Virus record (IMG/VR): IMGVR_UViG_2645728091_000017
Location: 1 to 23,397 of that record
Strand: one strand, 5' to 3'
Length of the DNA: 23,397 nt
Origin: a virus
Lineage: Duplodnaviria; Heunggongvirae; Uroviricota; Caudoviricetes
Part shown: in pieces, positions 11,044-12,406 of the stretch
How the letters are laid out: each line of letters opens with the position of its first letter
Position numbering within the stretch: position 1 is the first letter of the stretch
The notes under the pieces: generated by a model
What the model saw: only the letters and a program-made list of their open reading frames with translations
What the model was told of the DNA's origin: nothing
Databases searched by the model: none
Made by a program: the position numbers and the translations under genes

Positions 11044-11294
11044 ACTTCAATTTCCAGTTCTGGCGCATAAATATCATTTACTTTGCCAACCAGTTGAAGT
11101 GCAGCACCCGGACGCTTTAATACTTCGGTCAGTGCTTCTTTACTTTCCGTTGCCACAATTCGCGTCAGATAGTTATGTGCCGGGGCAACTTTATTATCCA
11201 TCGCCATTTCATTAATAAATTTGTTGTAGGCGGTCTGATTTGGTTCAAAAACAATATCAACACCACAAACACACAGTTTAATTTGTTCCATCAC
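11034..11294 (-). CDS. Tail assembly chaperone (short, zero-frame product)
   Basis: 86 aa ORF directly upstream of the tape measure gene, ending ...ELEIEVKN with the slippery site in its last codons. Confidence 0.6.
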   Translation of the reverse strand: MMEQIKLCVCGVDIVFEPNQTAYNKFINEMAMDNKVAPAHNYLTRIVATESKEALTEVLKRPGAALQLVGKVNDIYAPELEIEVKN

Positions 11295-11577
11295 TCATAC
11301 TCTCTCTTAAATTAATTTCGTCCACTAACTGATTATGACGCGCAGCACACTGGCCATAAATTTCAGGATAAATTGTCAGTAATTCCGCTGCGTCTTTTCC
11401 TGTCGTACCGTTCAGGCGCGGCAGCTGCGTGGTGCATTTAGTTTTCAGGTTTTCCTGATAACGCACGCTCGGTACCAGCTGCGGCGCTGTTGTACATGCT
11501 GACAAACTCATCAGACAGACAACGATTGGTAAAAACGGGCTTAAGTATTTCCGTGCGTATCTCACGCGGTGCCACAT
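11278..11577 (-). CDS. o-spanin (Rz1-like outer membrane lipoprotein), partly embedded in the i-spanin gene
   Basis: Starts inside the Rz-like ORF in another frame. N-terminus MWHRVRYARKYLSPFLPIVVCLMSLSAC has a positive n-region, hydrophobic core and lipobox L-S-A-C. Confidence 0.5.
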   Translation of the reverse strand: MWHRVRYARKYLSPFLPIVVCLMSLSACTTAPQLVPSVRYQENLKTKCTTQLPRLNGTTGKDAAELLTIYPEIYGQCAARHNQLVDEINLRESMSDGTN

Positions 11578-11776
11578 TTTTTAACGCCTCCAGTTTATCT
11601 TCCAGCGCTCTGGCTGAATCACTGGCAATGCCCTGCATTACTTTTCGCGATTCATTACCGGCCACCTGCGCCACTGTATTGATCGCCAGCTCTAAGCTGT
11701 CACGCCGCCAGTCAGCGGTCAGCCAGCCCCAGACAAACGCCAGCGCCACCACAACCAGCCACTGCCCGCTGCTCAT
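11438..11776 (-). CDS. i-spanin (Rz-like)
   Basis: 112 aa with an N-terminal transmembrane segment (WLVVVALAFVWGWL) and a helical periplasmic domain; ATGA overlap with the endolysin stop. Confidence 0.6.
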   Translation of the reverse strand: MSSGQWLVVVALAFVWGWLTADWRRDSLELAINTVAQVAGNESRKVMQGIASDSARALEDKLEALKNVAPREIRTEILKPVFTNRCLSDEFVSMYNSAAAGTERALSGKPEN

Positions 11777-12117
11777 CAGCGCACCCCGTTATGTTCCAGG
11801 CTGAAATGATTACCATCAGGTCTGGATTTGAAGCGTCCGCCCCAGGAACCACCCAGTGATTCCCAGTATTCCCCCAGTGGCAGATAATCTTCTGTACGGG
11901 TTTTGTACTGACCGTTCACGAACAGATTGAAATCCACCGCCAGCCGCTGGGTGTGCAGGCTGTTAGAAATGCCGCTGCCTTTCTTCGCATTCAGCGCGGC
12001 CTGTTCTGGTGTACGGTAAGCCTCACCGAACGTCAGTCTGTAGCCATGTTCTTCTGCCCAGTGGATCAGACTGGCCACCATGACTGTGAATAATTGCTGT
12101 TTTTCACTCAGGGTCAT
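11776..12117 (-). CDS. Endolysin, M15-family peptidoglycan peptidase-like
   Basis: About 114 aa from MTLSEKQQLF, with GGGAG 9 nt upstream. Motifs resemble small M15 peptidase endolysins. The ORF track's extended N-terminus (to 12234) overlaps the holin and is unlikely. Confidence 0.6.
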   Translation of the reverse strand: MTLSEKQQLFTVMVASLIHWAEEHGYRLTFGEAYRTPEQAALNAKKGSGISNSLHTQRLAVDFNLFVNGQYKTRTEDYLPLGEYWESLGGSWGGRFKSRPDGNHFSLEHNGVR

Positions 12118-12406
12118 TTGTCTTGCTCCCGTTCTGCTTTCCCGCTGCACGTCTGCGCAGCCACACTTCCACCGCCTGATAACCGGCAATCCCCAGCGCC
12201 GCCCCCAGCCCCTGAATGGCCAGCGGGCTGGCATCCGGGATCTGAATTAGTACCGCCCCGGCCACCACTGAAACCAGACTGCCCAGGATCACGCGACCGG
12301 CAAACAGGCGCGGCGTGATTGGGTCATTACTGGTCAGCACATTGCCGATGGCAATCAGTGCGCCAATGATCAGCAGTGAATAAAGGCTCTTTTCATGTTC
12401 CTGCAT
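12104..12406 (-). CDS. Holin (three predicted transmembrane segments, charged C-terminus)
   Basis: 100 aa with hydrophobic stretches LLIIGALIAIGNVL, VILGSLVSVVAGAVLI and LAIQGLGAALGIAGY, then RRRAAGKQNGSK; immediately upstream of the endolysin. Confidence 0.6.
   Translation of the reverse strand: MQEHEKSLYSLLIIGALIAIGNVLTSNDPITPRLFAGRVILGSLVSVVAGAVLIQIPDASPLAIQGLGAALGIAGYQAVEVWLRRRAAGKQNGSKTNDPE

Follow-up and report, generated by a model that had tools for sequence, protein, structure and literature searches.

The question raised by this locus is whether a set of lysis genes that lies among tail genes, away from the place known from phage P2, reached its position by modular rearrangement, as the first-pass annotation of the sequence had suggested. 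The window (the whole 23,397-nucleotide stretch that was analyzed) is an ESSI-2-like prophage with 96% DNA identity to Escherichia phage ESSI2_ev129 across the 2.2-kb cassette region, and it is assigned to the HP1/K139/ESSI-2-type branch of the Peduoviridae. The four lysis open reading frames were all present on the minus strand where they had first been placed, and the identities given to the flanking tube and chaperone genes were borne out by matches to Phage_HP1_Orf24 and Phage_TAC_10 (Table 1). The cassette is complete, as had been claimed, with the holin, the M15 endolysin and the i-spanin identified by Pfam or PHROG matches well above cutoffs. Our preferred reading, to which we give a probability of roughly 90%, is that this is a canonical three-step Gram-negative lysis cassette, placed among the late tail genes of a Peduoviridae prophage of the ESSI-2-like (HP1) type and co-transcribed with them, in a position that is normal for its lineage.

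Table 1. Features of the lysis locus and its surroundings, in coordinates of the window.
Feature	Position	Strand	Description	Evidence
Gene L	15199-15702
Gene R	14696-15202
Gene S	13992-14699
Tail tube gene	12416-12871	-	HP1 Orf24 family, upstream flank	PF10772 (Phage_HP1_Orf24) 6.8e-64; phrog_1182
Lysis cassette	11278-12406	-	Four lysis genes
Holin	12104-12406	-	100 aa, P2 gpY family	PF04550 6.3e-39, 132.7 bits vs cutoff 25; phrog_175 'holin' 1.8e-39
Endolysin	11776-12117	-	113 aa, single-domain M15 (LAS-type) zinc peptidase	PF13539 5e-11; PHROG endolysin families
i-spanin	11438-11776	-	112 aa	phrog_1152 'Rz-like spanin' 4.6e-34; hydropathy
Shine-Dalgarno GGAGG of o-spanin	11587-11591	-	9 nt upstream of ATG at 11577
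o-spanin	11278-11577	-	99-aa precursor, 72-aa mature predicted lipoprotein	phrog_2425 1.4e-31; phrog_456 Rz-like 3.8e-6
Dual-coding overlap	11438-11577	-	140 nt; i-spanin C-terminus in frame 0, o-spanin in frame +1
Lipobox codons of o-spanin	11494-11505		L25-S26-A27-C28
Tail assembly chaperone gene	11034-11294	-	86 aa, downstream flank	PF10963 (Phage_TAC_10) 8.4e-37
Slippery site of chaperone gene	11037-11043		A_AAA_AAC	Frameshift reconstruction
Chaperone with frameshift product	10843-11294		Equivalent of P2 E/E+E'	P2 annotation

The gene order of the window is sheath, tube, lysis cassette, chaperone with a -1 frameshift, and tape measure, which is the synteny of HP1-type Peduoviridae. The tube gene stops 9 nt ahead of the holin ATG. 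At the other flank, reconstruction of the -1 shift in the chaperone gene gives a 150-aa product that ends at 10843 and overlaps the tape-measure ATG at 10846. In P2, as the first-pass annotation correctly stated, the lysis genes Y-K-lysA-lysB-lysC lie between the head completion genes L/X and the tail completion genes R/S. In the window, genes L, R and S are contiguous and the cassette comes after the tube gene, so the P2-type placement is absent.

The order tube, lysis genes, chaperone and tape measure is annotated in HP1, K139, ESSI-2, ev239, ESSI2_ev129, Salmonella SI7 and Yersinia vB_YenM_324, the slot of the last being annotated as holin, metallopeptidase, I-spanin and O-spanin. A survey was made of the best 80 species-representative loci with this tube gene, a similarity-biased sample in which 79 loci have a recognizable chaperone gene. 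The gap between tube and chaperone genes was cassette-sized (at least 900 nt) in 67 of these 79 loci. The gap measured at least 500 nt in 68 loci; of these, 61 contain a recognizable holin or endolysin, and 43 a holin and M15 pair like that of the window. The occupied slots came from Enterobacterales, Pasteurellaceae, Aeromonadales and Pseudomonas, and at least four endolysin types were found in them. The content of the slot is thus modular, while its position is not.

These comparisons bear directly on whether the cassette was recently rearranged or inserted as a module in this prophage alone or in its near relatives. The gene order does differ from that of P2, the slot content is mosaic, and the holin is still a P2 Y homolog, which implies that the order of cassette and tail module changed deep in Peduoviridae history. 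A recent event is nevertheless very unlikely, because the slot is filled in HP1, K139, ESSI-2, SI7 and the Yersinia phage as well as in the 67 surveyed loci, and the layout is already in the literature. In HP1, ORF24 (tube) and ORF25 flank hol and lys, and experiments have shown that these two genes bring about lysis (PMC7312051), and the order tube, lysis genes and chaperone has been described for P2-like phages generally (PMC10612066). The arrangement thus goes back to the ancestor of a large clade and is no local event. The earlier inference of rearrangement arose because P2 was taken as the reference; the position is indeed altered relative to P2, but it is the standard order in the phage's own branch, and comparison with related prophages revealed a slot common to them and no special rearrangement.

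Direct homology of the holin to P2 Y, in the family PF04550 (Phage holin family 2), is seen in 54% identity and an E value of 2e-35. Hydropathy analysis found hydrophobic segments in the holin. Two are strong (approximately residues 6-27 and 34-58), and a third, at approximately 59-81, is weaker and only moderately hydrophobic (KD15 about 1.4). Class I holins have three transmembrane segments. The C-terminal tail is charged and basic (RRRAAGKQNGSKTNDPE). According to a passage in PMC6116005 that refers to To et al. 2013, P2 Y has been studied experimentally.

The endolysin start overlaps the 3' end of the holin gene. The 152-aa open reading frame of the program-made list is an upstream extension of it, and the 113-aa start was preferred because nearly all of 3241 homologs are 113 aa long. 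The protein scores 43.5 bits with Peptidase_M15_4 (PF13539), for which the cutoff is 25. Its putative zinc ligands H55, D62 and H104 (H-x6-D...H) are invariant in 25 sequences, and R35 and D101 are likewise invariant (22-25 homologs). The AF2 model (pLDDT 74) gave weak fold matches, the best Foldseek hit having an E value of 7.6e-3 and a TM score of 0.51. The top six PDB fold matches, all weak, were all M15-family enzymes, comprising the L-Ala-D-Glu peptidases Ply500, ChiX, LysECD7, RB49 and EndoT5, followed by VanY. A sequence search against PDB placed a spurious match to the HMWP2 carrier domain at the top (E 0.012), with Ply500 at an E value of only 0.32.

Because HP1 has the same slot and tail genes and uses a pinholin with a SAR endolysin, such a pair could be proposed here in place of a large-hole holin with a cytoplasmic endolysin. 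We give almost no weight to this proposal. The endolysin has no signal, SAR or membrane segment, its maximum KD15 is 1.08, its model has a confident helix at residues 3-23, and the holin has its homolog in P2 Y and not in the HP1 holin. Hardly more credible is a role for the M15 protein as a virion-associated peptidoglycan hydrolase of the tail that serves entry and not lysis. Its gene does sit among tail genes, and the enzyme is small and single-domain, with no cell-wall-binding domain. Against this role, the gene is bracketed by the holin gene and the spanin pair, with which it appears translationally coupled, and the protein carries no tail-protein fusion and is placed by PHROG in endolysin families. 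In other lineages the same slot is filled by unrelated endolysins accompanied by holins of their own, and HP1 lys is an endolysin by experiment.

The i-spanin has an N-terminal transmembrane segment (approximately residues 6-20) followed by a periplasmic domain. The single KD15 peak, 2.23 at residues 7-21, agrees with the transmembrane anchor by which i-spanins are recognized (Summer 2007; Kongari 2018), and one cysteine, C86, is conserved in relatives. No Pfam or NCBIfam match was found for the i-spanin, BLASTP against P2 LysB gave no alignment, and an NCBIfam search of five proteins gave nothing above cutoff.

The o-spanin gene begins inside the i-spanin gene and ends beyond it, which is the overlapped two-component architecture (Summer 2007; Kongari 2018). 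Both its start in another frame and its LSAC lipobox, as first described, were confirmed by sequence and conservation. The predicted lipoprotein signal consists of the n-region MWHRVRYARK (charge +4), a hydrophobic core and the lipobox, for which the consensus [LVI][ASTVI][GAS]C (PMC6139136) was used. The lipobox is kept as LSAC or MSGC in relatives, as is expected of a signal peptidase II substrate. The mature protein has Thr at residue +2, which implies sorting to the outer membrane, and two conserved cysteines, Cys21 and Cys50. The o-spanin scored below the LysC cutoffs (25.4 against 27 bits for PF23793, and 19 against 27 bits for the NCBIfam model NF038368), and at most it is distantly related to that family; for this reason it was not classed as a LysC equivalog.

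The 140-nt overlap encodes the o-spanin signal peptide, lipobox and first mature residues, and the GGAGG of the o-spanin falls within the i-spanin codons that specify KLEAL and is kept in ev129, ev239 and ESSI-2. DNA identity in the overlap, i-spanin-only and o-spanin-only zones was 82.9, 58.3 and 79.4% for ev239, 85.0, 67.9 and 73.1% for ESSI-2, and 64.3, 56.0 and 58.1% for Yersinia phage 324. Conservation across the spanin locus is thus highest in the dual-coding zone, and substitutions in the o-spanin-only zone gather at third positions of the o-spanin frame. The reading frame is not due to chance, since it is kept, with the signal peptide, the lipobox and two further cysteines, in relatives whose 2.2-kb DNA is only 68-78% identical, and since conservation peaks in the overlap. 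A lipobox open reading frame is present in HP1, while a regular-expression lipobox search beside the annotated i-spanins of SI7 and K139 found no o-spanin.

Three independent public annotations (NC_049394 gp11, OM095401 'O-spanin' and RefSeq WP_040080371) start the downstream gene at an internal GTG. That start falls after the lipobox Cys and removes the lipobox, and on this model the gene would be a 62-aa open reading frame for a non-lipoprotein, with the upstream extension a chance open frame. We consider the shorter gene highly improbable. The extension is open in every relative but SI7, with an ATG start (GTG in the Yersinia phage), it encodes a textbook n-region, h-region and lipobox signal, and the 99-aa start is the one preceded by GGAGG at 9 nt. 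The high conservation of the overlap also argues for the longer form, and a protein with no signal would have no route to the outer membrane. The annotation of ESSI-2 gp15 has the full 99 aa, and overlapped o-spanins are routinely omitted or mis-started by gene callers (Kongari et al., PMC6139136).

With the 99-aa o-spanin, the four products would, judging by homology, act in three steps. The P2 Y-like holin would build up in the inner membrane and trigger at an allele-specific time, forming large non-specific holes. Through these the soluble 113-aa M15 zinc peptidase would exit and cut the peptide stems of the peptidoglycan, probably at the L-Ala-D-Glu bond, as its structural neighbors do. 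The i-spanin, anchored in the inner membrane, and the lipoprotein o-spanin, anchored in the outer membrane, are predicted to form a periplasm-spanning complex that, once the wall is gone, would fuse the two membranes and release the particles. The genes overlap by 14 nt (holin and endolysin), by the TGATG shared by the endolysin stop and the i-spanin ATG, by 140 nt (the spanins) and by 17 nt (o-spanin and chaperone), and these tight overlaps would fit translational coupling in a single transcript. A promoter and terminator scan of 10700-14100 gave totals not above shuffled expectation and no match on the minus strand within the cassette; the sole minus-strand promoter-like match in the scanned region (10831-10804) is inside the tape-measure gene. 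Rfam gave no match over the whole window.

The same three-step logic of holin, endolysin and two-component spanin is found in the lambda S-R-Rz/Rz1 cassette, where the lipoprotein partner is also in the +1 frame. In lambda the lysis genes form a block of their own where the late transcript begins, with a dual-start holin and a transglycosylase endolysin, while the window has no dual-start holin and encodes a peptidase. In lambda, Rz1 lies wholly within Rz. By the architecture classes of PMC6139136, the spanin genes of the window are overlapped instead. P2 shares with the window the homologous holin, the overlapped i- and o-spanins, a weak similarity between the o-spanin and LysC, and the embedding in a late operon beside tail genes. 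It differs, apart from position, in its endolysin, which is a lysozyme (K) and not an M15 enzyme, in its LysA antiholin, which is absent from the window, and in LysB, to which the i-spanin has no detectable similarity. The late operon of HP1 is syntenic, with homologs of the sheath, tube, chaperone and tape-measure genes, and the HP1 lysis module (hol-lys-orf25/Rz1) occupies the identical slot between orf24 (tube) and orf26/orf27, with an overlapped spanin pair that includes a lipobox. The cassette contents are non-homologous, HP1 having a pinholin and SAR muramidase where the window has a P2 Y-like holin and a cytoplasmic M15 peptidase. The ESSI-2-like phages (ESSI2_ev129 NC_049394, Quadragintavirus; ev015, ev040 and ev239; Cronobacter phage ESSI-2) have the same genes, order, overlaps and flanks as the window and differ by only a few amino-acid substitutions; in their public records the o-spanin is cut to 62 aa or listed as hypothetical.

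Three lesions that disrupt reading frames were found in the prophage, affecting its genes for the terminase, the portal and tail-fibre assembly; the terminase lesion is a deletion, and ESSI2_ev129 is without all three. In coordinate order, the lesions lie at 4866, 19728 and 20485. An exact-match search for the junction of the terminase deletion in species-representative genomes gave no match. Given the three lesions, this host may never see the cassette expressed as part of a productive cycle. PADLOC gave no match for the low-GC cargo proteins of the window. Among the best 80 loci surveyed, nine Xenorhabdus loci have an empty slot between tube and chaperone genes and are likewise without head genes. 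It is conceivable, if unlikely, that the tube-chaperone junction is a conserved docking slot for swapped, unrelated cassettes that is perhaps emptied when the phage is domesticated as a headless tailocin, and that the prophage of the window is at an early stage of this process. Such early decay or domestication could apply here because the terminase, portal and tail-fibre assembly genes are broken while the tail core and the cassette are intact. The tail-fibre assembly lesion argues against a functional tailocin here.

Earlier work has already documented this cassette for the phage lineage, in architecture as well as position, the spanins of ESSI-2, HP1 and K139 having been catalogued (Kongari 2018, PMC6139136), and the locus is ordinary and has little discovery value. 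One small gain of the analysis is the shortened o-spanin in public records: in ESSI-2-like phages and prophages it should be annotated as a 99-aa lipoprotein precursor and not as the 62-aa open reading frame of RefSeq and GenBank. The family of 113-aa M15 endolysins, with more than 3000 homologs in Enterobacterales, appears to be without biochemical characterization and could be of interest for enzybiotic work. For the scanning of genomes, the caution to be drawn is that P2 is the wrong synteny reference for HP1-type Peduoviridae.

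Profile matches, sequence features and comparison with relatives bore out the first-pass annotation in its identification of four lysis genes (holin, M15-type endolysin, i-spanin and o-spanin), in its placement of the o-spanin start inside the i-spanin gene in another frame, and in its reading of the o-spanin lipobox as LSAC. The pathway would be the canonical holin-endolysin-spanin one, in which the triggered holin would perforate the inner membrane, the M15 peptidase would escape and degrade peptidoglycan cross-bridges or stems, and the i-/o-spanin complex would fuse the inner and outer membranes.

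Features of the window, and of compared loci (L-numbers) where indicated
Feature	Coordinates	Strand	Remarks
Terminase, large subunit	18762-20478	+	two ORFs, 18762-19922 and 19504-20478
Portal, lesion region	20474-20535	+	lesion at 20485
ogr/Delta-like regulator	21532-21855
DUF2806 protein	22006-23043	+	345 aa; E 1.2e-25
82-aa ORF	15750-15998	-	'phage tail fibre repeat' PF03335, 1.5e-10
Head-tail adaptor, P2 L-like	15199-15702	-	phrog_71
Tail terminator, gpR family	14696-15202	-	PF06891
Tail completion, gpS-like	13992-14699	-	phrog_26; PF05069 just under cutoff (23.8 vs 24.3 bits)
Sheath	12868-13995	-	DUF2586 / phrog_907
Tube	12416-12871	-	Phage_HP1_Orf24, 6.8e-64
Four lysis genes	11278-12406	-
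Holin	12104-12406	-	100 aa
Endolysin	11776-12117	-	113 aa
i-spanin	11438-11776	-	112 aa
o-spanin	11278-11577	-	99 aa; +1 frame
Tail assembly chaperone	11034-11294	-	Phage_TAC_10, 8.4e-37
Slippery heptamer	11037-11043	-	A_AAA_AAC
Chaperone fusion product	10843-11294	-	150 aa
Tape measure	8879-10846	-	PF10145 / phrog_28
Tail-fibre assembly	4616-5207	-	split: 4854-5207 and 4616-4897
Glycosyltransferase-like moron	1-717	+	phrog_1962, 6e-81
62-aa o-spanin ORF, ESSI2_ev129	4479-4667 of L001
62-aa o-spanin ORF, Yersinia phage vB_YenM_324	3495-3683 of L002
62-aa o-spanin ORF, RefSeq E. coli prophage	12479-12667 of L010
Tube gene, nine Xenorhabdus loci	4501-4953 of each		L033, L037, L039, L040, L042, L043, L046, L047, L054

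The holin matched PF04550 with 132.7 bits (cutoff 25) and the PHROG 'holin' profile (1.8e-39), and its alignment with P2 gpY has 54% identity across 90 residues (E 2e-35). It has two segments of strong hydrophobicity, a third that is weaker and a basic tail at the C-terminus, and by sequence it is assigned to the P2 Y family. No P2 lysA-type antiholin or dual-start motif was found in the cassette. The endolysin ORF begins at the ATG at 12117, upstream of which lies GGGAG; the mechanical list extends this ORF upstream to 152 aa, and nearly all homologues (best 120 of 3241) are exactly 113 aa. The protein scored 43.5 bits against Peptidase_M15_4 (cutoff 25), and residues R35, H55, D62, D101 and H104, which are invariant in 25 sequences, correspond to the H-x6-D...H zinc-site pattern of LAS/M15 enzymes. 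The six best PDB matches of its AlphaFold model (pLDDT 74) were all M15-family proteins with weak scores (best E 7.6e-3, TM 0.51), namely the L-alanoyl-D-glutamate peptidases Ply500, ChiX, LysECD7, RB49 and EndoT5, followed by VanY. The endolysin is classified as an M15_4 member, outside the P2 K and HP1 Lys families. Hydropathy revealed no hydrophobic N-terminal segment, which argues for a cytoplasmic enzyme that would depend on the holin.

The i-spanin matched the PHROG 'Rz-like spanin' profile (4.6e-34) and has a single, N-terminal membrane segment by hydropathy. The o-spanin starts 140 nt before the i-spanin stop, with GGAGG located 9 nt upstream of its ATG, and its N-terminus consists of a +4 n-region, a hydrophobic core and the lipobox; threonine at position +2 would imply sorting to the outer membrane, and the mature protein of 72 aa has two further cysteines. 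ESSI2_ev239, Cronobacter phage ESSI-2 and Yersinia phage vB_YenM_324 all keep the +1-frame ORF with its signal peptide, both cysteines of the mature domain and the lipobox, which reads MSGC in the Yersinia phage and LSAC in the others; HP1 also has an overlapped lipobox ORF. In the same three relatives, DNA identity to the window was higher in the 140-nt overlap than in the zones coding for the i-spanin only or the o-spanin only (ev239: 82.9%, 58.3% and 79.4%; ESSI-2: 85.0%, 67.9% and 73.1%; Yersinia phage: 64.3%, 56.0% and 58.1%, respectively), and substitutions in the o-only zone were concentrated at third positions of the o-frame. Both patterns are as dual coding and purifying selection predict. 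The overlap is more than chance, and at the sequence level the pair fits the 'overlapped' two-component class in every respect. The o-spanin fell just under the LysC family cutoffs and the i-spanin had no similarity to P2 LysB, which suggests that the two are not equivalogs of the P2 pair but its analogues or very distant relatives. The ESSI-2 o-spanin is included in a spanin census in the same group as 9NA, FSL_SP-062 and FSL_SP-069, and the census also covers HP1/HP2 and K139 (Kongari et al., PMC6139136).

All genes between 8879 and 15702 lie on the minus strand and are tightly packed around the cassette. The tube stop is 9 nt from the holin ATG, the holin and endolysin genes overlap by 14 nt, the end of the endolysin gene and the start of the i-spanin gene share TGATG, and the 3' end of the o-spanin gene overlaps the chaperone start by 17 nt. 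A scan found no minus-strand promoter-like or terminator-like site inside the cassette, with totals not above chance. Because of this packing and the lack of such sites, the cassette is most likely translated from one late transcript together with the tail genes; the timing of lysis is most likely set by the holin itself. The slippery heptamer is located at the 3' end of the chaperone gene, just before the stop, and a -1 shift there results in a fusion product that ends 4 nt into the tape-measure gene and is the equivalent of P2 E/E+E'. Public records give this extension as a small ORF of its own, labelled DUF6890 or hypothetical.

Across the 2.2-kb region with the cassette, DNA identity is 96.1% to Escherichia phage ESSI2_ev129 (Peduoviridae, Quadragintavirus), 75-78% to ev239 and ESSI-2, and 68% to the Yersinia phage. 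Of 5426 complete E. coli genomes, 40 contained related prophages. A 20-kb contig labelled 'MAG: Bacillota bacterium' (JAEWTL010000126.1, locus L011) carries this enterobacterial prophage region with 97-100% protein identity to the window and is almost certainly mis-binned. The ESSI2_ev phages were functional temperate coliphages as isolated (PMC6969025). Three lesions disrupt reading frames in the window's prophage when it is compared with its closest relatives. A deletion of 59 bp between GCGGGCG direct repeats, judged against E. coli CM2010-0578/1 and ESSI2_ev129, frameshifts the large terminase gene near 19728, and the junction had no exact match in species-representative genomes. In the portal gene, 1 bp is deleted from an A-run (GTAAAAA-AAC) at the fifth codon, so that the frame of the upstream ATG stops after 19 codons and the sole long ORF begins at an internal Met at 20531 (334 aa vs 353 aa in relatives); the lesion may be genuine or may reflect a sequencing error in the homopolymer. 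A 4-bp tandem expansion near 4866 splits the tail-fibre assembly gene, which has (CCAC)3 where the closest E. coli prophage has (CCAC)2. The prophage is therefore probably defective, unless the lesions are assembly errors, and they suggest a prophage in decay that has kept its lysis cassette intact.

Several other genes were observed in the window. The DUF2806 gene, of low GC (about 0.35) and with no PHROG or PADLOC match to its protein, directly follows the ogr/Delta-like regulator, where relatives have a replication endonuclease; it resembles the cargo of a P2-family variable spot. The glycosyltransferase-like moron, also of low GC, lies beyond the baseplate end, an end at which a serine acetyltransferase is found instead in related prophages and phages. 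Situated between the genes for the small terminase and the head-tail adaptor, an odd location for a tail-fibre gene, the 82-aa ORF is labelled 'tail fiber protein' in ESSI2_ev129 and may encode a head decoration or collagen-like repeat protein.

The first-pass annotation had correctly noted that the P2 lysis genes precede R and S, but its proposal that the cassette's position reflects modular rearrangement was contradicted by synteny. The P2 order is L-X-Y-K-lysA-lysB-lysC-R-S, with FI-FII-E-E'-T far downstream. ESSI2_ev129, ev239, ESSI-2 and Salmonella SI7 are all annotated with the tube gene followed by holin, endolysin, spanin(s), chaperone and tape measure; the Yersinia phage has the same order, with the labels holin, metallopeptidase, I-spanin and O-spanin. 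The HP1 order is orf24-hol-lys-orf25-orf26-orf27, with the same layout in K139, and the lytic function of hol and lys, located between ORF24 (tube) and ORF25, was demonstrated by experiment (PMC7312051). A survey was made of 80 species-representative genomic loci encoding the window's tube family, with lysis, chaperone and tape-measure homologues placed by tblastn; close relatives are over-represented because the loci were taken as the top matches to an alignment in which the window's protein came first. The chaperone was recognisable in 79 loci, and the tube-to-chaperone gap was at least 900 nt in 67, 500-900 nt in one and below 500 nt in 11. The 68 gaps of at least 500 nt contained the P2 Y-like holin and M15 pair (43 loci), HP1-type holin with SAR muramidase (8), HP1-type muramidase only (4), P2 K-like lysozyme (2), K139-type endolysin (2), a single recognisable M15 or holin gene (2), or nothing recognisable with the reference set used (7).

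In nine Xenorhabdus spp. loci the slot was empty, with a gap of only 148-231 nt, and the upstream region had no homologues of the capsid, small terminase, adaptor or gpS genes, which agrees with the xnp1/xbp1 xenorhabdicin tailocin cluster, itself headless. A complete prophage with holin and M15 genes in the slot is also present in at least five of these genomes (L035, L050, L051, L057, L058).

Both spanins are 'hypothetical protein' in PGAP, and the o-spanin is annotated as a 189-nt (62-aa) ORF beginning after the lipobox cysteine in NC_049394 (gp11), OM095401 ('O-spanin') and the RefSeq protein of E. coli CM2010-0578/1; late-starting or missed o-spanins are a systematic gene-caller artefact (Kongari et al., PMC6139136). 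The full-length lipobox o-spanin is the sole point at which the first-pass annotation improves on the databases, and it is an annotation fix rather than a discovery. The cassette is an already known, ordinary and well-documented module that had been correctly read. P2 is the wrong synteny reference for this lineage, in which the tube-chaperone position is the norm, and the survey sequences indicate a conserved slot with mosaic content.
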